DNA of 64,000 bases from the NCBI RefSeq assembly GCF_018977255.1, contig NW_024704746.1:1116001-1180000 (forward strand), given 5' to 3'. Both the position numbers and the translations under genes were made by a program. The notes beneath the pieces are model-generated. The model was not told the DNA's origin and did not search any database. It was given only the letters and a program-made list of their open reading frames with translations. Source of the DNA: Callorhinchus milii (lineage: Eukaryota). The number at the start of each line of letters is the position of its first letter. The first letter of the stretch is position 1. Of the stretch, positions 2,389 to 61,444 are shown in pieces.

Positions 2389-3461
2389 AACAACAACAAC
2401 AAGATTCCATTTATAAAGCGCCTTTCACGTCAGGAGGACGTCCCAAGGCGCTGCATAGTTGGGTCATGACCCGAGCATTGGGGGGAAATGGTCAGGGTGA
2501 GGGGAGGGAAGGGAGGGAGCGAGGAGGGGGGAAATGGTCGAGAGGGGAGGGAAGGGAGGGAGCGAGGAGGGGGAAATGGTCAGGGTGAGGGGAGGGAAGG
2601 GAAGGAGCGAGGAGGGGGAAGAGAGTCGAGAGGGGAGCTGAAGGCTCGGTCAAAGAGAAAGGTTTTGAGACCGGCCTTGAAGGAGGAAAGGGAGGAAGCG
2701 GCGAAGGCACTGGGGGATAGAGTTCCAGAGCCTTGGGGCTGAGAGGCTGAAAGCCCGACCACCGATGGTAGGGCGATTGGGGCGGGGGACGTGGAGCAGA
2801 CCGGAGCCAGAGGAACGGAGGGTACGGGCAGGTAGGTAGGGGGATAGTAGGTTGGAGAGGTAGGAGGGAGCAAGGCCGTGAATGGCCTTGTAGGTGAGGA
2901 TGAGGATCTTGAAATCAATCCTCTGGGGGATGGGGAGCCAGTGGAGGCGAGCGAGGGTGGGAGTGATGTGGTCCCGAAGCCTGGTGCGGGACAGTACACG
3001 AGCTGCAGAGTTCTGAATGACCTGCAGTGTGGAGGGAGGTGGCGGGAAGGCCGGCGAGGAGAGAGTTCCCATAGTCCAGCCTTGAGGTGACAAAGGCGTG
3101 AACCAGGGTTTCAGCCGCGTGAGGGGTGAGGTAGTGCCGTAGTCTGGCGATGTTCCGGAGGTGATGGAAGGCGGTGCCAGTTGTGGTGCGGATGTGAGGG
3201 AGAAAGGACAGCTCAGGGTCGAACAAAACGCCGAGGTTCCTGACTGGCTTTGAGAGGTGGAGAGTGCGGCCTTGGATGCTGATGGTGTCGGCGCCTGAGG
3301 TGCGGAGGCGCTGACGTGAGCCAATCAGGAGGGCCTCGGTTTTTCGCACGTTGAGCTGAAGAAAGTTGTCTCTCGTCCAGGACTCGATGTCGGACAGGCA
3401 GCTGTCAGGACATCGGGGGTCGTGGAGTTGAGGGTAGAGGAGGAAAGGTAGAGTTGGGTGT
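2389..3461 (-). mobile_element. L2 (LINE2-clade) retrotransposon, 5'-truncated, frameshifted ORF2 RT C-terminal half plus 3' UTR
   Basis: Minus strand reads TQLYLS...CLSDIESW..NFLQLNVRKTEALLIG...VRNLGVLFDPELSF...LVHAFVTSRLDYGNSLLAGLP / LQVIQNSAARVL...HITPTLARLHWLPIPQRIDFKILILTYKAIHGLAPSYL...GGRAFS..APRLWNSIP / FKAGLKTFLF, split over frames by frameshifts near 3400, 3030 and 2715. Ends in the AGCGCCTTGGGACGTC..GACGTGAAAGGCGCT hairpin and (TTG)n. Confidence 0.95.
2481..2636. repeat. ~41-44 bp purine-rich tandem repeat (about 3.5 units) inside the L2 3' region
   Basis: Unit GGGGGAAATGGTC(AGGGT/GA)GAGGGGAGGGAAGGGAGGGAGCGAGGA repeated head to tail. Confidence 0.85.
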
Positions 3462-3677
3462 AAGTGTTTAGGGTCACAAGATGGCATTAATATTGTTGGC
3501 TAATATAGGATGCATATGCATCTCACTTCATGCTCTACAAACATCAAGAGGAACAGAAATCAGCAAACGCAAATTTTAGTGGTAAATGAAAATTAGTCAG
3601 TTTTGTCATCATTATGTTTCATTCCAAATAGAACCAAGGATTTGCAATAATTTGAATTTATATAAAATAATAAAAAT

Positions 3678-12529: not shown

Positions 12530-13735
12530 ATGATACAGTGCTTTCACATCAGGAGGATGATTCATAGCACTTCACAGGATTTACTTTAAAGGTCAGTGAC
12601 TGTGTATTTTGTAGGTGAGCAAAGCAGCCAATGTACATGACAAAGTACATGACAATGTCCCACAAACAGTTATGAAGTCAATGACCAATTTTATCCAATG
12701 TAGACCAGGACACCAGGAGAAACTCCCTTCTTTTTTCGAACATCCATCTGAGCAGGCAGAGGGGACCTCGGCTTAATGTCTCATCAGGGCCTGGATGAGT
12801 GCAAACTTCCTGCAGCTGAATGTGGACAAGATGGAAGCCATACTCCTTAGCTCCTGTTAACTTCTTCACTCCTGCGGATCTAAACTCCTCAATCTCCCTG
12901 GGCTCTCCCTCAGACTCACCGAGCCAGTGCCCAACCTAGGCGTATGGTTCAACCCCAGCTGTCCTTTGTTCCCCACATCCAGTCCCTGATCAGGACCACT
13001 TTTTTCCCCCTCCGCCACATTGCCCGCCTCTGACCGTACCTTACCCTAAATGCAGCCGAAAACCTTGTGCATGCGTTTGTCACCTGCCGCTTGGATTACT
13101 CAAATGCACTCCTCGCCAGTCTCCCCAGCTCCACTATCCAAAAGATTCAGCTCATTCAGAACTCTGTCACTCGAACATTGACCCCGACCAAACTCCGTCT
13201 CACCAGCTCTGCCCAGACTACACTGGCTCCCCATCCCCAAACAGATCGAATTCAAGATCCTCTTACTATCGTGTTCAAATCCCTTCACTCCCTGGCACTC
13301 CCTACCTCTCCTCACTTTCCAATCCACCACCCAAGCCTCCGTTCGACTGGCCCTAGCTCCTGCTCCTCCCCCCCCACACTCTTGGAGGTCGCGCTTTCAG
13401 GCAATACGCCCTGAAACGCTGGAACGCTGTCCCTCAGTCCCTCCGCTTTCGCCTCTCTCTCCCTTTTTTCAAGTCTTGCCTGAAAACCTTCCTCTTTGCT
13501 TACCATGCTTACAGTCACCTCTCCGCCCCCTGGCTCGAAGTCAGACTCCGCCACTGTTAAGAGCTGTAAGATGCTACTGTGGAGGGTGCTATATAAGTGC
13601 AAATTGTTATTTTTGTTGAAGACTAGCACACTGACAATGCAGTGCTCCCCCAGCACTGTGCTGGTAAAGGTATTGGCATGAGACATTGAACAAGACTCTT
13701 AAGTTGGTCTTGAAGCTCACTTGACTCAGTGGGAG
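12530..13735 (-). mobile_element. DeuSINE split by the 12790-13618 L2
   Basis: CCAGGACACCAGGAGAAACTCCCTTC..GGGACCTCGGCTTAATGTCTCATC before the L2; AAGACTAGCACACTGACAATGCAGTGCTCCCCCAGCACTG after it. Confidence 0.8.
12790..13618 (+). mobile_element. L2 LINE, 5'-truncated and degenerate, inserted into a DeuSINE
   Basis: WMSANFLQLNVDKMEAILL, NLGVWF, HAFVTCRLDYSNALLASLP..IQKIQLIQNS, FKSCLKTFLF; tail TATAAGTGCAAATTGTTATTTTTGTTG; DeuSINE sequence on both sides. Confidence 0.9.
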
Positions 13736-14052: not shown

Positions 14053-14412
14053 GGTCCTGGTAGCTCAGTGGTTAGAGCACTCACCTCACAAGCGAGAGGA
14101 CCCAGGTTTGATTTCTGGGCAGGGCAAAAACTTAGGCAAGTTTCCCTACTCCAAATGGCTTTGTTTACCTAGCAGCAAATAGGAACCCGGTTGCTAGTCG
14201 ATTGGCGGATCGCTTTACCGGGGGTAATAATCCCTTAAAAAGAATTTGGGCATTCAATCCATGACTGTTTGTGGGATGTTCCTGTGCACAATTGATTGCC
14301 ATGTTTCGCCCACAAATATACAATCAATTCACTTTGCAGTATATTCTGTGAAGCGCTTTGAGACATCTCAATGACATGTTAAGGCGCTACATCAAATACA
14401 AGATTATTATAT
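14053..14412 (+). mobile_element. tRNA-derived SINE (family A, TTA tail), full length
   Basis: Pol III A box TAGCTCAGTGG, B box GGTTTGATTTC, central GGCAAGTTTCC..GTTTACCTAGCAG domain, L2-like hairpin AAGCGCTTTGAGACATCTCAATGACATGTTAAGGCGCT, TTA tail. Confidence 0.92.
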
Positions 14413-15245
14413 ATTATATATATTAAGGTGCAGAGAGATTATATTTGGTACCAAATACCGTCCCCAGATATACCGTCCCAAGATATCTCGTCGAAGGGAA
14501 GAGCAGATGTTCGCTCCTTCTGATGATTCCTCCAAGAATCTGAAATGCAGTGGAAATAAAGCTGGTGCCAAGCTCACCATGCTCATTCAATCCTCATCAT
14601 ATATAATCTATACAACAAAATACTAAACACGAGACCAGGAGGAATAGCAGAATTGTACATGCATGCAATTGCCCGTGAGATTGCATGCAGAGCAATTGGA
14701 ATCCATTGCTCCAGTCTGCTTTCCATTACATTGGAAGCAACATAAATGACTTCATCCATCAGACTATTTTTACAATAAACTGTATAGAGGACAAGATGGT
14801 ATCCTTTTGTTAATCACAACAAACAGAAGTGTAATAAAATATTTTACAATATTATTGCACATGTCCTTTTAATTTTCTAAAGCTTTGGACTTTTTTTAAA
14901 AGTATCATGGAAGAGTGTGTATCTTTCATTCTCAAATGAATCTCCATTCGTTACTGCACATGGTTTAAATGTTCTATATTAATTGGCTGTGGGATTGACA
15001 AGGAAATCAGTAGAATCAAATAATACTGTAACCTTTTAAACGGATGATATTTATGAAGGTCATAAATATCATCCGTTTAAAACCATCTCCTGAATTTATT
15101 TCTTGCAATTTTTTGCCACGTTCTCTCTCGACTTTGCATGCTGACCTAAGGGGTATGATTTCATTGTGTCTATTATTCTCCATTCCAGTAATTCAACCAA
15201 GTGAACATTCTCCATGTCTGAATCCAGTCAGTGAACATTGGCAGG

Positions 15246-19356: not shown

Positions 19357-19770
19357 GCAACAACAATTTGCATTTATATAGCGCTGCTCACACAGGCTAG
19401 CATCCCAGAGTGCTTCACAGTAGCGGAGCACGGGTGGTGAGGGCAGGTAACCTTGGCACAGTCGAATAGGAAGGTCTTCAGGCACAACTGAAAATGTGGA
19501 AGGAGGGGGCAAGGCAGAGGGATAGAAGAAGAGTGTTTCGGGGGGTAGTGACTGAAATTGTGTCCATTGATGATGGAACAGAGGGCACAAGGGACATGCA
19601 GGAATTCAGAGCTAGTCGAGCAGAGGCAACGGGTTGTGGGTTGGGGAGTAAGCATGTCAGAGAGGTAAGAAGGTGCCAGGGCATGAAGAGATTTGAAAAC
19701 GAATGTGAAAATCTTGAAATCAATCCATTCGGCAATAGGGAGCCTAGCAGAGCAGAGGGATAGGCTTGGT
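19357..19770 (-). mobile_element. L2 LINE 3' fragment
   Basis: (CAA)n tail plus TTGCATTTATATAGCGC; minus strand LKTFLFDCA; TTGAAATCAATCC (IDFK) near 19715. Confidence 0.8.
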
Positions 19771-21720: not shown

Positions 21721-23281
21721 TTGTATATAATAAGAAGAATCATTGCATTTGATACAATGTTTATCACGTCTTCGAGAATATACTGTAAAGTGAATTGACT
21801 GTGTATTTTGTGACAGTAGAGTGGGTGTTCTGGAAGGATAAGATCAGACAGGAGTCAAAGGCTCTTCTTCAATCTTGTGAACAAACACAAATTAAATTTC
21901 AAGGCTTCATAAAAGATTTTTTTGAAAATATATGTTTATTTATAAATATAATAACTAGCACAACAGAAATCCAAATCAAACACATCTTCTGTCACACTTT
22001 TTCCCCGATAGAAAAAATATTCTGTTGTTTACAGTACATTCCTTCACCACACATAGGTTGTGCAAACGTTTTTTTTTGCGAGGTTCTCTTTAATTGCCTT
22101 TAACACATTCAGCAGTTGCCCCTGTGCTCACCCCCACACAGTCTGATAAGACTCAAGGTGTTGGATAAGTTAAAACCATTGCACATCTTTATGTCACACT
22201 TCATTGTTATTACAATTCTAGTGTTAGTTCTGTGTGAATGTCTGCTTTTTATTTGTTATGCATTGGAAAAGAAACATGGGGAAGTAATATTGGTGCTGTA
22301 AGTGTGCATGGTATCACAAATGGTTTAAGTTATGGTTCAATCCAACGAATGGAATCCTAGATATTCCAAACTTTAAATCTCAACAAAACTATTTTGTGAA
22401 GCCTTTCTAAGATTGCCATTTAAATTGCATCCACTCTGCGACGTGGAGGTACTTTATCTTTATCCCAACTCTATCGCAACAAGACTGCTGGGAAATCAGA
22501 TGCAAGTTCCACCAGAATGCTAAAGAAATCAGAGGAAGAAATTTGTGGGTTCAAGCCCCAATTCAGGACTTGAGCTCATAGTTCAGGTTGACCCTTATCT
22601 AATTGGCCATTCACCTCATGTCTCAGGAGAGCCTCAGGAGCAAAAGAGAGAAAACTAATTACAGTGCCTTTGATCCTTTGTAAAAGTCTGAGCATTTAAT
22701 GTAGTTTGTACCTGAACCACATGTTTTCATTATGAAATTTCACACCAGTTAGTACACTATCACATCTCCGTGAAAGTCAAGGATTACTTATTAAAAGCAT
22801 ATGTTCTCTTCACTCCATTGATGGCTGAATCACGATATGCACCAGACATTTAGAATCATCGGTACAGAACAGAAGGAGGCTCTTTGCCCATTGATTATTT
22901 TAGATCATATCTTCTTAAAAAACTCTGCCTTCTGGTGTCCTGACCAACATTCCTCCACATTAAATTTGTCATGCACCTCACGCCTGTTGTTGGGATTTTT
23001 GTTGAGTACATAATGTTTGCCGTGTTTGCCTGCAAATGTCCTACCACTATTCTTGCAGCAATCACATGAAGTGCTTTCAGATAATAATAATAATCCTTGC
23101 ATTTCAGATGTCTTGAAGTGATAAACGCTGTGTCAAATGAATGGATCATTATCATTAATATTTGCTCCCCAAGCAAAGATAGAATGAAGCGTGATCGCAT
23201 GAATCACGACCCTGGCAATCACACAAATATCACAAATATCAAGGCGCAGATAATAGCAATCCTCGCATTTGATATAGTGCA

Positions 23282-23567
23282 TACAGACTCTGGCCTGCTC
23301 CAAGTCCCCCGCCCTACCCAGGCCACCCAATCAATGGCAGTTGGGCCTTCAGCCTTTCTGCCCCCACCCTTTGGAACTTCATCCCAAGATCCCTCTCCCT
23401 TGCCCTTTCCTTACCTCCTTCAAGGCCCGACTTAAGACCCTCCTCTTCGACCGCACCTTCGGTCACCCTGCCCTCCACCCCTCCCAACCCCCAGCTCAGG
23501 TGCAAATCCTTGATTGTCCAGCGCCTTGGGACGTGAAAGGCGCTGTACAAATGCAATTTGTTGTTGT
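23282..23567 (+). mobile_element. L2 3' end with shortened tail hairpin, nested in a SINE tail
   Basis: SGLLQVPRP..., FKARLKTLLFDRTF, AGCGCCTTGGGACGTGAAAGGCGCT, (TTG)n; interrupts a minus-strand SINE tail (23250-23281 and 23568-23700). Confidence 0.9.
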
Positions 23568-25304
23568 TATCATGTCATCGAGACTTCTTGAAGCGCTTCG
23601 CAGGATATACTGTGAAGTGCAGTGACTACGTATCATATGCAAAATGAGGCAGCCAGTTACGCACAGTAATGTCCCACAAAGAGGCATGGAGTGAGTGACC
23701 AATTTTTTTTATCTGGGGGATTGTTAGCGCCATGGGATCTTTAACATCCACCTGAAGAGGTAAATGGGACCTTGATTTAATGTCTTATCCAAAAGACAGC
23801 GTTATATCAATGACAATATGGTGAAAGCAGCAGGAATGCACTTTACCCCATTTTGAAAATGACTGAGATTGACAAATGTCTAGTTATGAAAAATAATCTT
23901 ATTATATATATACATATATAAACTATCTTCTCTTATTTCAAAGGCCTTTTAAGTCCAAGCGTGTGAGGGTTTGTTTGGTTTTCTTGTTTCGGATCTACAG
24001 TAGTTTTGAATGGAAAATCATCCAAGGCTGAACTAATACATTCAGTATTGTATTCCACTTGAAATCCATTTCATCTGAATTGACTTCTTTCCCCACCACC
24101 TAAAATAATAAGGCTGAATCACTGATATGACAATGCTCCACACACAGTCCAAGACGTGAAATAGTTCTCTTATAGTTCACCGACAAAATACACAGCCACT
24201 ACACATTACAATAAATCCTATAAGAACATTGAAATGTCTTGGCAACATGATAAAGTGCTATATCAAAAAGCAGTGAGTATTATTATTATTATATATAAAA
24301 CACACAGCTAATATTATTTGCAGTAAATCCAGTGAAGCCACACCCTCCAAAGGTGAAAGGTGCTGAGGTAACGTTTATTCATGCCTCTTTTATAATACAC
24401 CTTTGGTGACTGTGCCTTGCTGATATCAACTATAAAGAATATTATTTATAGTTTGTATTCAATGTGAGATTTCACCCCTCCTATGTCTACAATTAAGTTC
24501 CCCAAAAGACTCTTAAGAGACAGCATAGATCACTCCTCATCACAAGACTAGTTGCTGCAAGCATTGCACTGGGAAATATTACAATTGTTAAGGCCTGAAA
24601 TATTGCAGTATCCAGACTTCTAAAACATGTGGTTAATATGGCTAACAAATATATGGCATTAAAATGATCATCACCTGTTCTGGACTCAGTAAAGGTTTAA
24701 TCATGTCCTAAACACTGTGAGTGACAGTGCTAACAGATAGAAGGATTCAGCTGGACAGTACTACTGTGCTGTGCAGTTAATCAGTTTTTTAAAAAAATCT
24801 AAAATAAAGGCTCTTAATGTATCATAAGTTAATACTGTTACAGGCTGTAACACATTCAGAAACTGCGATAAGCACTTCTAACAACATCTGTTATACATTG
24901 GGTATCGTAGAACTGGAAATATGTTACAGGGCAGGAACACATCAAGGGACTCAGATAATGTCATAAACCACAGGTACAAAGCCTTAGCATCTATCAACGA
25001 CATATGAATGCCAAAAGGTGCTATAACCTCCAAATGCACTCCTTCTGTATTACTCTTTATACACACATGTGGCTGTGGGGAGCTTGATCCACTTTGTGCC
25101 ACATCTTTCTCGCACAAGCAGCAAATACAGACTGAAACCTGCTGTGAACTGCAACAATTTTAACATGCACTTTCAACTGAATAAATGTTTGTTGCATGGT
25201 GCAGGCAACTACTGTAGTTGATCACAAGGTCACAAGAGAGGTTCGAATGGAGAAAGTCCTTTGGCATGTTTCCTTCCAGAATACTAGCTCTACCCCCTTG
25301 CTAG

Positions 25305-30382: not shown

Positions 30383-30741
30383 GGAGTCCCGTAACTCAGT
30401 GATTAAAGCACTCGCCTCGCAAGTGAGAGGACCTGGGTTTGATTCCCAGGCAGGGCAAAATTTTAGGCAAGTTTCCTTACTCCACATTCCTCTGTTTATA
30501 TAGCAGTAAGTAAGAACCCAGTTGTTAGTCAATTAGCCGATTGTTTCTAGGGGTAATAATCACTTAAAAAAATGATAAGCAAATAATAATTTAATCAATC
30601 AATCCATGACTGTTTGTGGGACACTGCTGTGTACTTTTTGCTCACAAAATATAGTCAAGTCACTTTAGTGAAGTACTTTGAGACGTTTCAATGATGTGAT
30701 AAGGCACTACATCAATGCAAGGATTATGTTTATATTATTAT
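30383..30741 (+). mobile_element. tRNA-derived SINE family A, full length
   Basis: GGAGTCCCGTAACTCAGTGATTAAAGCACTCGCCTCGCAAGTGAGAGG head; same body and tail as 14053. Confidence 0.9.
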
Positions 30742-32057: not shown

Positions 32058-32640
32058 TGGCATTTGATATGAGCGTCAGGAGAACATCACAAAGTACTTT
32101 ACTGGATTTGCTGTAACTGATTGCATTTTATAGGCAGCCCGACAGCCAATTTGCACACAATGTCCCACAAACATACACAAAGTAAATGAATAGTTTTATC
32201 TGGGGCCAAACAGAAGTCACTGGGAACACTCAGCAGGTCAGGCAGCATCTATGGAGAAAGGAAAGTGAGTCAACGTTTCAGGTCCATAACTCTTCGTCAG
32301 AACTGTGACTTCCCAGTGACTCCTGTTTTGTTTCAGATTTCCAGCATCTGGAGTATGTTGCATTTAGTTTTATCTGGAGGTCTGTTGGCCATGACACCAA
32401 GAGAAACTCCCTTCTCTTTTCAAATAGTACCATGGGATCTTTAACTTCCAACTGAACAGGCAGACTGGGCCTCGGTTTAATGCCTCATTGTTGGCACCTC
32501 CAACAAAGCCACGCTTCCCCCAGCACTGCATTGGAGCGTGGGTGTCCCAATGTGTGAGATCAGAGTCTCAATGTGGGGTTTGAACCCACAACCTTCTGGC
32601 TCAGAGGCAAGAGTGCTACCAACTGAGCTAGGCTGCCACA
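32058..32640 (-). mobile_element. DeuSINE, near full length, interrupted by a Penelope-like element
   Basis: TTCAAATAGTACCATGGGATCTTTAAC, GGGCCTCGGTTTAA, TTGAACCCACAACCTTCTGGCTCAGAGG..GTGCTACCAACTGAGC. Confidence 0.88.
32204..32364 (+). mobile_element. Penelope-like inverted-repeat remnant with hammerhead-ribozyme motif; 13-bp TSD
   Basis: TAGTTTTATCTGG at 32191-32203 and 32365-32377; minus-strand AGTT-CTGACGA-..-GAAA-CGTT-GACT at 32268-32304; 3' tail TTTCAGATTTCCAGCATCTG. Confidence 0.75.
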
Positions 32641-45017: not shown

Positions 45018-45256
45018 CATTAAATACAAACAGAACTGTCTGGGAACACTCAGTAGGTTAGGCAGCATCTATGGAGAGAGGAAAGTGAGTTAACGTTTCA
45101 GGTCGATGACCTTTCGTCATGTCGATGACCTTTAGTTGACAAAAGGTTAACGTTAACTCACGTTCCTCTCTCCATAGATGCTGCCTGACCTACTGACTGT
45201 TCCCAGAGCCTTTTGTTTTTATTTCAGATTTCTAGCATCTGCAGTATTTTGCCTTT
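45018..45256 (+). mobile_element. Penelope-like palindromic remnant
   Basis: About 70-bp inverted arms (45027-45097 and 45149-45220), truncated hammerhead motif TGACGAAAGGTCATCGACCTGAAACGTTAACT on the minus strand, one-sided tail 45221-45253, flanks ATCCTACACA/ATCCTATACA. Confidence 0.75.
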
Positions 45257-50046: not shown

Positions 50047-50598
50047 AATAAATAATAATAATCCTTGCATTTGTTAATGGTACCTTACATATTGACAGAT
50101 GTCTCAAAGCACTTTGCAGAATTTACTGTCATGTGTGGTGACTGTATTTGTAGGCAAACATGGCAGCCAATTTATACATGGCATGTCTCACAAACAGCCA
50201 TGAAGCGTATCATTAATTTTATCTGGGGGATTGTCAGCCAGGACACCTGGAAAGAGGAAAACTCCCTTCTCTTTTCAAATAGTTTCACAGGATCTTTAAC
50301 ATCCACTTGAACTAGCAAGGACGGGACTTCGGTTTGACATCTCATCTGAAACAACAACAACAACAACAAGATTCCATTTATAGAGCGCCTTTCACGTCCC
50401 AAGGCGCTGGAAGCCAGCATCTTTGACAATGCAGCACCCATTATAGTGTCAGTTTAGGCTGTGTGAGCTCACAGTCCCAATGTGGGGCTTGAACCCACAA
50501 CTATCTGACTCAAAGCCAAGTGTGATACTGAAATCTACCTGGATGCTCCCCCTTGTGAAGGGCACTATATAAATGAAAGTTGTCTGAGCCAGGCTGAC
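50047..50598 (-). mobile_element. DeuSINE, full length, carrying two L2-tail insertions (50351-50409 and about 50530-50583)
   Basis: TTA tail, Deu domain, GGGGCTTGAACCCACAAC, CTGAGCCAGGCTGAC. Confidence 0.88.
50351..50409 (-). mobile_element. Isolated L2 3' tail (short-hairpin variant) inserted in a DeuSINE
   Basis: (ACA)n AGATTCCATTTATAGAGCGCCTTTCACGTCCCAAGGCGCTG, flanked by GAA on both sides. Confidence 0.85.
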
Positions 50599-51642
50599 TG
50601 GTAAGGTGAGGTGTTAGTTTCAAGGTGTTCTCAGGCACTGTATGAGTGTTCCCTATTGCTGGTTTCACTTTGTTCCTGAGTTTCTTTCTCTATCAGGGTA
50701 ACCGGAGTGCGGTTGTCAACACTGAGGGACAACCCAGCTGCTGTGATCTCTGCCCCTTCACTCTAACAACTCTACCTCCACAGAAGGGGAGAGTGAGAGT
50801 GGAAAGAGAAGAAGAAAAAATAATAAGGGAAAAATGAAGAGGGGGAGTGGGCTGAAGAGCGATTAATCAAGCGATGGATCTTGTAAATACGTCACCGGAG
50901 TCTGATGGGGAGAAGAGGTTAGTCGGGTGTCAGGGAAACAGTCGGGGTAATAAAATCATGCAGATTTATCTGTCTAAATTGGAAACTTCATGCTTACACC
51001 TGACTAAATCATCAAACTGAAACATTAGATTGCCTCCCACAGAAGATGTATGAAATCCAATCCCATCTTTGTTTAACGGGGGCCAATCGAAGAAACTAAT
51101 GTATTTTGCAGATGTTGTCAGCAGCATTGATTTCCGCGCTCAGAAATCTTTCCACTGCTCCTTGAAACAGTGTTTTTTAGTCTCCTGTTTAGCTTTCCCT
51201 TCTCCCGAAACCCCCTCCCCCCCACCCCCCGCCGCCCCATTGTCTACTTCTTTTAAGCCCCACTGCTCCTTTTTCTAAGAATTAAAGAATTTACTGAGAA
51301 ATCACAGGGATTAGGTCTGAGGGGGTGTAAGTGACCGTATCAGAAAGAGTCTCCAGCCCTGAGTCCTTTAATCTGGAACACACATGTTATTATTCCACAT
51401 TAGCCATGGTCTTCATAAATTTGACAAATATTAAACAAACATTGCAGGTGGTCAACAACTGCACTCAGCAGTTGGTTGCAGACTTCCCGAAGCTTGTGTG
51501 GTCGAGGCCAGCTCCCTTGTCTTTTCGTCCACTGTGACTGGGCAGGGAAAGCTATCGTAAAGATACAAACAGAGAAAGAGAAAGACACACACATTGACAC
51601 ACAGTTGTACACACACACATGTACCCACACGTAATGCATACA

Positions 51643-53300: not shown

Positions 53301-53559
53301 CCTCACGCAATCTGTCCAAGTTTCTCAGTTACCCAGTCAATGAACTTCCTCTGTCAGTAAAGCACACATTCCCTGTCTAGTAAGAGATAGCCTGGTGGTT
53401 TTTTTCTTCTTCTTCTGCGTAGAATTCTTCCATTGAAATCTCTTTGGATCATGTTCCACTCCGTATGTATGTCAATTTCACGAAGGAGGAGGGGAATGCA
53501 GTGACTAGTTCTCTGACCGATTAAGCAAAATTGGTTTGAAATTATGATGATGATATAAT

Positions 53560-53941
53560 TAATAATAATAATCGTTGCATTTGATACAGCGCTTTATCAC
53601 GTCATTGAGATGTCTCAAAGCGATTCACAGAATATACTGTAAAGTGAATGGACTGTATATTTTGTGGGCGAAACGTGGCAGCCAATTGCGCACAGCAGCG
53701 TCCCCACAAACAGATGTGGATTGAGTGACCAAATCATTATTTATTTATTTAATTTTGAAGGGATTATTACCCCTGGAAAGCGATCCGCCAATCGACTAAC
53801 AACCGGGTTCCTACTGACTACTAAGTAAACAGAGGCGTGTGGAGTAAGGAAACTTGACCAACATTTCACTCGGTCCGGGAATTGAACCCGGGTCCTCTCC
53901 CTTGCAAGGTGAGTGCTCTAACCAATATGCCACGGGACTCC
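53560..53941 (-). mobile_element. tRNA-derived SINE family A, full length and well preserved
   Basis: Head GGAGTCCCGTGGCATATTGGTTAGAGCAC, B box GGTTCAATTCC, many CpGs retained. Confidence 0.93.
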
Positions 53942-54876: not shown

Positions 54877-55065
54877 GCAAAATACTGCAGATGCTGGAAA
54901 TCTGGTAGAAACGCAGAAGTCGCCGGGAACACACAGCAGGTCAGGCAGCATCTATGGAGAGAAAAAACTGAGTTAACGTTTCAAGTCGATGGCTTTTGGT
55001 CAACGAACTCATTTTCCTCTCTCCATAGATGCCTGACCTGCACGTTGCCAGCGACTTCTGTGTTT
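54877..55065 (-). mobile_element. Penelope-like palindromic remnant
   Basis: Tail GCAAAATACTGCAGATGCTGGAAATCTG on the left, inverted arms CAGGTCAGGCAGCATCTATGGAGAGA / TCTCTCCATAGATGCCTGACCTG, flanks ATCACACATTACAAATG/ATCACTTGTTACAAATG. Confidence 0.72.
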
Positions 55066-60590: not shown

Positions 60591-60930
60591 GGAGTCCTGT
60601 AGTGTAATGATTAGCACACTCGCCTCGCAAGCGAGAGGACTCGGGTTAGATTCCCAGGCATGGTGAAACCTTAGGCAAGTTTCCTTACTCCACACGCCTC
60701 TGTTTATCTTGCAGTACGTAAGTTGTTAGTCAATTCTGGATCACTTTCCGGGGATAATAATAAATGTGGTCACTTAACCCATGACTGTTGGTGGGACATC
60801 ATTGTGTGCAATTGGCTGCCACGCTTGCCCACAAAATACCCAGTTAATCCACTTTACAGGATATTCTGTGAAGCATTTTGAGATGTCCCAACGATGTGAT
60901 ATGGCGCTATATCAAACGTAATGTTATTAT
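60591..60930 (+). mobile_element. tRNA-derived SINE family A, variant head; tail hit by a Penelope-like insertion
   Basis: GGAGTCCTGTAGTGTAATGATTAGCACACTCGCCTCGCAAGCGAGAGG; tail sequence GTAAGGATTATT resumes near 61276. Confidence 0.9.
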
Positions 60931-61275
60931 ACAAAACGCAATATACTGCAGTTGCTGGAAATCTGAAACACAAACAGAAGTTGCTGGGAACATGCAGCAG
61001 GTCAGGCAGTTGCTCTTTTCTTCGACATAACTTTTGTTCTTCCCTTTTACCCTGCTCACCTTATTTGCTATCTGTTTCCCTTCTTGTGTTTGACCCTATT
61101 TTCTCCTTTGTCTTCCTTGTCTTGCCTCGTCCCTCTCTGTTAGTCCTTAAAAGCCTCTTCTTCCCAACATGCCCCAGTTCTGACGAAGGGTCATGGACCC
61201 GAAACATTGACTCACTTTCCTTTCTTCGTAGATGCTGCCTGACCTGCTGAGTAAACCCAGTGACTTCTGTTTACG
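60931..61275 (-). mobile_element. Penelope-like remnant with inverted ends and pyrimidine-rich internal segment
   Basis: Left tail and arm 60938-61009, right arm 61176-61272 carrying the hammerhead motif; flanks GTAATGTTATTAT/GTAAGGATTATTAT. Confidence 0.75.
61176..61212 (+). ncRNA. Minimal type I hammerhead ribozyme motif (Penelope-associated)
   Basis: AGTT (stem I) CTGACGA A GGGTC-ATG-GACCC (perfect stem II) GAAA CA TT GACT (stem I'). Conserved cores CUGANGA and GAAA are present. Activity not shown. Confidence 0.65.
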
Positions 61276-61444
61276 TGTAAGGATTATTATTATTATTTTG
61301 ATTAGTTGTTTCTGCAATGAGTCCAACTTTTCGGTTCAGCCACCCTTCCTGGTAACCAGGTGTTGATTATTTCCAACTGCAAAACTTGAGAGGACTTGTT
61401 TCCCGGGGGAAAGAGGGGATCCTTTTGCTTTCTGGGCATAAAAA

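Follow-up and report, generated by a model that had tools for sequence, protein, structure and literature searches.

A minimal hammerhead motif at 61 kb

The window analyzed here is a 64,000-nucleotide stretch of the Callorhinchus milii genome (contig NW_024704746.1, positions 1,116,001 to 1,180,000), and the coordinates below count from its first base; the features discussed are collected in Table 1. The 37 bases of the + strand at 61176–61212 read letter for letter as in a first-pass annotation of the same DNA, which had proposed a minimal type I hammerhead ribozyme with both catalytic boxes, a perfect 5-bp stem II and a closing stem I, a description borne out by the sequence and by a descriptor search (see below). 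Standard hammerhead numbering is used throughout for this stretch. Stem I (61176–79 with 61209–12) has 4 bp, including one U–G pair; the C3–A9 box CUGACGA (consensus CUGANGA) occupies 61180–86 and is followed by an extra unpaired A at 61187; stem II (61188–92 with 61196–200) is perfectly paired over 5 bp and closed by a 3-nt loop; and the GAAA box (G12–A15.1, 61201–04) is followed by CAUU, in which U17 is base 61208. The type I layout is thus present, with CUGANGA and GAAA boxes flanking helix II and helix I closing, and the predicted cut falls between 61208 and 61209. The helix III remnant at 61204–07 is non-palindromic in this copy. The features tested were taken from a published account of minimal hammerheads (PMC4209133): of three that its authors noted beyond their own descriptor, the unpaired base between positions 9 and 10.1 (A61187) and the G10.1–C11.1 pair (G61188–C61200) are present at 61 kb, and the 15.2/16.2 palindrome is present in the family majority only.

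Table 1 Features at and around the 61 kb motif, and related insertions in the window
Feature	Position	Strand	Remarks
Minimal type I hammerhead motif	61176–61212	+	From sequence, pattern match, descriptor and fold
Fold-back insertion holding the motif	60931–61272 (342 nt)		Inverted arms; interrupts a tRNA-headed SINE within its 3' tail
Long arm	61010–61272	+	Pyrimidine-rich (78%) upstream part, hammerhead, 60-nt family 3' end without tail
Short inverted arm	60931–61009	−	Family 3' end plus tail of about 40 nt (60931–60971)
Candidate decayed target-site duplication	60918–60930 (left), 61277–61290 (right)	+	Low complexity, weak
tRNA-headed SINE hosting the insertion	60593–60930	+	tRNA match 60593–60666; tail resumes at about 61273–61300
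Acceptor-like signal	61207–61234	+	Branch-like motif, 15 of 17 pyrimidines, TAG at 61229–31, then ATG at 61232; overlaps the 3' strand of stem I
Second fold-back copy	32204–32364	−	Hammerhead 32268–32304
Third fold-back copy	45028–45256		Hammerhead truncated at C3; tail on the 45149–45256 arm
Fourth fold-back copy	54877–55065		Hammerhead remnant near 54970–55002; core decayed, palindrome intact

The descriptor was derived from the published minimal hammerhead and required at least 4 pairs in stem II and at least 4 in stem I. In its full form it found a single site in the window, 61176–61212, and was matched in 1 of 600 dinucleotide shuffles. The bare CUGANGA..GAAA pattern gave 8 window matches against 5.9 expected, which is at chance level, and the local fold is of ordinary stability (z = 0.55). 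The first-pass annotation had suggested a search with a type I hammerhead model; the type I descriptor matches the 61 kb copy, as just described, but the Rfam covariance models gave no hammerhead match there at E values up to 10, a miss that would be expected of minimal forms lacking helix III. An unenriched core, an unremarkable fold and the silence of Rfam are what a chance match in repeat-rich DNA would produce, but the rarity of the full descriptor among shuffles, the palindrome of the family majority and the covariation of stem I across families with the same core (both below) leave that reading a negligible probability.

Four related fold-back insertions

The 61 kb motif lies in an insertion whose short arm matches the inverted end of the long arm at 31 of 38 positions. 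Three relatives were found in the window. Two of these, a closer copy at 32268–32304 on the minus strand and a decayed one near 54970–55002, are absent from the first-pass annotation. In the 32 kb copy, which is 83/92 identical to that at 61 kb, the core and the palindrome are intact and stem II is broken. The first-pass annotation had cited a hammerhead copy at 45 kb: this copy exists, and its stem II (AGGTC/GACCT) and intact palindrome are confirmed on the hammerhead side (minus strand, 45119–45028; 76/92 identical to the 61 kb copy), but it is not a whole hammerhead, as the arm begins at U4, cut at the fold-back junction, and so has neither C3 nor the 5' strand of stem I.

Inverted arms with a tail on one arm only are present at all four loci; a complete hammerhead motif is present at none (0/4). 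Target-site duplications are significant at two: the duplication at 32 kb is perfect (13/13 bp, 32191–32203/32365–32377; none of 2000 random pairs scores as high) and that at 55 kb matches at 14/17 positions (54860–54876/55066–55082; 9 of 2000 random pairs as high). The candidate at 61 kb is marginal (59 of 2000 random pairs score equally high) and that at 45 kb non-significant (140 of 2000). Arm lengths and junctions vary among all four loci, and the insertions, of 160–340 nt, carry no ORF body. A search of the window found no tandem array over any of the four.

Inverted ends bordered by target duplications could also describe a MITE-like DNA transposon with terminal inverted repeats, in which the likeness to a hammerhead would be incidental. 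Such an element is extremely improbable here: no two loci agree in arm lengths and junctions, an extra tail is carried on one end, and the two clear duplications, of 13 and 17 bp, are both long and differ in size; moreover, contig depth is biased toward the 3' end and the same core adjoins Penelope-type ORFs elsewhere (both below). The dispersed, inverted disposition of the copies, with arms unequal in length, and the lack of a tandem array over the four loci likewise make it very unlikely that the family is a non-LTR retrozyme, that is, a tandem, satellite-like unit yielding circular RNA, even though retrozymes carry type I hammerheads and are reported, in 10.64898/2026.07.22.740005, to originate in Penelope pseudo-LTRs and to occur in a chondrichthyan. 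The 5'-truncated, partly inverted end of a Penelope-like element agrees better with these data and is developed below.

Three of the four window copies begin at the 5' edge of the hammerhead, some 30 nt before the predicted cut (61175–61181; equivalents 32305, 45119, 55002), and loose ends of contigs from the sequencing runs described in the following section accumulate at 61177, the 5' edge of stem I (114, 162 and 207 contigs in X1, X7 and X8, respectively). This cluster may mark a stall of the reverse transcriptase (RT), a template switch or an RNA 5' end. At 45 kb the fold-back junction (45100–45150) contains a small fragment of stem II in duplicated, rearranged form, which suggests repeated template jumps.

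Family size and decay in sequencing-run contigs

Contigs of four sequencing runs, the DNA-like X1, X7 and X8 and the possibly RNA-derived X21, were aligned to 60925–61420 at 80% likeness, giving 7,920 (X1), 13,734 (X7), 15,132 (X8) and 2,440 (X21) aligned contigs; depth is given as summed contig depths, a quantity that differs from copy number. A search of sequencing runs listed none of RNA origin as containing the sequence, a result uninformative as to expression. Toward the 5' part of the long arm depth drops by orders of magnitude, the profile expected of 5'-truncated retrocopies. Contig ends pile up at 61272 and 60972, the family 3' end without tail, and at 60931/60933, the 3' end with tail, as well as at 61177. 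The increase of depth toward the 3' part and the accumulation of ends at 61272 indicate that the long arm is likely a pseudo-LTR fragment. Among the 24 loose-end positions listed there is no pile at the predicted cut, 61209, contigs being unable to show RNA ends. Family-specific DNA patterns gave no match in viral contigs or metagenomes.

Position 61206 is a G in 73, 55, 57 and 79% of the summed depth (X1, X7, X8 and X21, respectively), so the palindrome is the family state and the 61 kb copy has decayed; the first-pass proposal that helix III is reduced to a palindrome lost at 61 kb by CpG decay is accordingly upheld. Decay of the CpG formed by C11.1 and G12 is close to symmetric in the DNA-like runs, with C11.1-to-T at 16.6/15.0/16.7% and G12-to-A at 16.1/15.4/16.1% (X1/X7/X8); in X21 the two figures are 12.9% and 8.8%. 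G12 is a catalytic residue of the hammerhead. As it decays as fast as its CpG neighbor, the genomic copies give no hint of being selected for cleavage and look to be evolving neutrally. No G10.1-to-A change at a level of at least 10% occurs among 40 of the 46 variants.

The difference between the 45 kb and 61 kb copies in stem II had been called compensatory in the first-pass annotation. The case for that wording is weak, because the 3' base concerned belongs to a CpG, the 32 kb copy is altered on that side only, and the decay is symmetric. The two-sided A–U form in stem II is common to the copies at 45 kb and 55 kb, which may represent a second subfamily, in which case the two-sided change would amount to at most one event; this possible event, in the 45 and 55 kb copies, is the one instance of stem covariation inside the window family.

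The same core beside Penelope-type ORFs

A metagenome scan with the core and the outer part of stem II as the pattern, stem I being left out, returned 103 matches in 100 loci. Beyond the core pattern these loci have nothing in common with the window, and many represent the same few families; they support the kind of motif and not the descent of the window family. In 71 distinct matches with flanks, the stem I positions left out of the pattern pair in 233 of 284 cells, compared with 194 ± 5 after shuffling. A second, 19-row set combined 17 loci, hand-picked as one per apparent family, with two window copies; in these hand-picked rows stem I pairs in 76% of cells versus 47% shuffled, slid controls reaching at most 57%, and two-sided changes in stem I number 27 versus 11 shuffled. 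Among the 71 distinct matches, position 17 is occupied by C 59 times, by U 9 times and by G 3 times; the G (GUG) occurs in L005, L006, L014 and L055–L057, in which stem I still pairs well. GUG at this position is normally uncleaved.

Locus L068 (1–3018) contains an apparently intact Penelope-type ORF of 961 aa with a minimal hammerhead at its start. The ORF has a weak RT match (E = 5.6e-6, below the cut-off) and a GIY-YIG-like motif preceded by a cysteine linker; its homologues carry RVT_1, often with GIY-YIG, and include bamboo-shark proteins of 52–55% identity. It matches 20 of the 100 metagenome loci, itself included. At 16 of the 100 loci the motif follows the C-terminus of a same-strand Penelope-type ORF at a distance of 90–182 nt, so that, with L068, the core is linked to such an ORF in 17 of 100; at the remaining ORF-matched loci it stands upstream of the C-terminal piece (one locus) or on the opposite strand (two loci). 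An upstream inverted copy accompanies 25 of the 88 metagenome matches with enough flank. With the family-majority palindrome, the position of the core after Penelope-type ORFs elsewhere supports what the first-pass annotation had suggested of the class, namely a minimal type I hammerhead of the Penelope kind, its helix III reduced to a vestigial palindrome.

ORFs, host exons and other repeats in the window

No Penelope RT/GIY-YIG ORF tied to the exact window family was found among window ORFs or with Pfam, tblastn or a Penelope protein set. Pfam was run on the 300 longest of the 346 window ORFs of at least 55 aa; at the cut-off it returned no match, two sub-threshold matches being set aside, and no host exon was detected. 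The peptide following the motif matched no full-length Penelope protein in a set of 152, and the read-through end of a shark Penelope-type protein gave a weak, low-complexity match to 61040–61147 (E = 0.01). A profile search with the short frame that follows the motif gave matches to three short proteins, including a catshark hypothetical protein. One of them, P0001, is a three-fold repeat peptide and is probably unrelated to the window family; the other two, P0002 and P0003, of which one is from catshark, are translations of the end of the window repeat that were filed as hypothetical proteins and are probably artefacts of gene prediction. The catshark match indicates that related repeats occur in cartilaginous fish.

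Elsewhere in the window, 50534–50689 on the minus strand shows a weak tblastn match (E = 0.004–0.17) to the pre-RT region of several Penelope-type proteins and, judged from this match, may be a very old RT relic; it holds the best tblastn matches of the window (E = 0.004–0.05), none of them a convincing remnant of a Penelope ORF. A dense family of tRNA-headed SINEs with (ATT)n tails is also present (e.g. 14054–14420, 30386–30730, 53550–53940 and 60593–60930), eight tRNA-like heads passing Rfam as its sole finds and about 20 tail copies being counted. Decayed LINE 3' fragments without a Pfam match lie at 2650–3500, 13030–13620, 19370–19770 and 23280–23620; they look L2/CR1-like.

An acceptor-like site and ATG behind the motif

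The ATG of the acceptor-like signal (Table 1) lies 23 nt past the predicted cut, and a stop-free frame runs from it in five arms. Equally strong sites are found at 7 of the 3803 YAGs in the window, 4 of the 7 within this family, on criteria that were set after the site had been seen and with family copies that are non-independent. A single X21 contig connects 61093 with 61232 precisely, the skipped stretch ending in AG; the contig has a short side of 21 nt, no GT at the 5' end and unknown bases between, and comes from a run whose RNA status is a guess. The joint was unseen in X1, X7 and X8 among 15 of the 233 joints. In X7 and X8, 29% of the depth carries a changed AG.

A comparable acceptor follows the hammerhead in 2 of 17 other families against a background of 21%, on which ground a general acceptor after Penelope hammerheads was rejected. 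CAG at 61175–77 scored lower as an acceptor (13 of 17 pyrimidines and no branch motif). The ATG at 61232 as the start of the element's own ORF found no confirmation, a word search giving no candidate and a profile search only the three short proteins described above.

We consider it a speculative and rather doubtful possibility that the hammerhead sits within an intron of the element's pseudo-LTR, with stem I over the branch point and the cut some 20-odd bases before the acceptor and start codon; ribozyme folding and splicing would then be mutually exclusive and could sort RNAs for translation or for copying. In Drosophila virilis, Penelope carries a 5' intron of 75 bp, the end of which abuts helix I (PMC4209133), so a link between intron and hammerhead is already known; a literature search found no hammerhead over a branch point in print for Penelope-like elements. 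Were the arrangement true, the purpose of Penelope hammerheads, a question left open in the papers cited, could be tested directly in this family.

Discussion

Taken together, the data make it very probable that the 61 kb feature is a mutated minimal type I hammerhead pattern in a short fold-back insertion, likely the 5'-truncated end of a Penelope-like element; this copy is predicted to be inactive. The pseudo-LTR of an active parent element would have carried the hammerhead. On tandem transcripts, a pair of copies could have joined through the ACGU palindrome to build helix III and been cut after GUU, perhaps with assistance of the element's protein in this dimeric cleavage. The element's RT and endonuclease would have scattered short end fragments, partly inverted, over the genome, and after insertion the copies would have decayed at CpG sites. 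At 61 kb, positions 15.1–16.1 read ACAU, which is not self-complementary; as this copy has neither palindrome nor partner, helix III would not form. Within the folded insertion the predicted pairing is 0.00 for stem I and 0.13 for stem II. No cutting is predicted for the 61 kb copy, which is alone, non-palindromic and, in the modeled fold, misfolded in its own hairpin.

The first-pass annotation had gone further, suggesting that intact copies inside host transcripts could cut them. For the 61 kb copy itself, an active or co-opted ribozyme cleaving a host transcript that runs through it would draw on core boxes and two stems that are formally intact, and on the precedent of domesticated intronic hammerheads in amniotes (PMC6155905), but we regard it as highly unlikely: the ACAU cannot pair with itself, no second same-strand motif in the window passes the descriptor, the stems are barely predicted to form in the folded insertion, no host exon was detected in the window by Pfam among the 300 longest of 346 ORFs, single minimal hammerheads stayed uncut in vitro in the experiments reported in PMC4209133, and the anole motif required protein in those of PMC11167929. 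With no intact copy among the four in the window, each standing alone, with no host exon and with published single minimal hammerheads inert, the broader claim is likewise unsupported, and cutting of host RNA by genomic copies is unlikely.

The closest published counterparts are the minimal hammerheads (min-HHR) of metazoan Penelope-like pseudo-LTRs described by Cervera and de la Pena in 2014 (PMC4209133), of which single motifs did not cleave in vitro and dimers and trimers cleaved weakly. The family shares with them the type I layout, a 4-bp helix I, the extra base, the G10.1–C11.1 pair and a palindromic 15.2/16.2 without a real helix III, as well as an occurrence mostly as single dispersed motifs from truncated elements, with some pairs on opposite strands. 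Stem II differs, at 5 bp here versus 7–8 in the Schistosoma families of the same paper, and the 61 kb copy differs further in lacking the palindrome. The portions of PMC4209133 and its supplement that were searched name no cartilaginous fish, and further supplementary lists there or in 10.64898/2026.07.22.740005 may already include such a family. A search of literature listings found no paper on this repeat family in cartilaginous fish.

In PMC8557442 and PMC2377424, endonuclease-bearing (EN+) Penelope-like insertions have an inverted, 5'-truncated copy and a 30–40 bp tail at one end. The window insertions resemble them in the inverted end copy, the one-sided tail and the variable target duplication, but are only 160–340 nt long and have no ORF body. 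The cysteine linker of the Neptune/Nematis type is a feature of L068 and its shark relatives, which are themselves unlinked to the window family. A hammerhead near a frame opened by ATG, with a tail about 100 nt downstream, is shared with the Anolis Poseidon element PAc (Frangieh et al. 2024; PMC11167929), whose tail marks two internal RT start sites; the PAc ORF, however, is proven and begins in stem II, whereas the window ATG lies beyond the predicted cut and opens a frame unlinked to an ORF. The PAc hammerhead requires the element's protein and is dispensable for insertion in vitro. Animal non-LTR retrozymes, as presented in 10.64898/2026.07.22.740005, are likewise non-coding, Penelope-derived and equipped with a type I hammerhead, but form head-to-tail arrays where the window has dispersed fold-backs. 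Placed among these systems, the locus extends the class described in 2014 by one decayed copy and by one family from cartilaginous fish, an addition that matters little as it stands.
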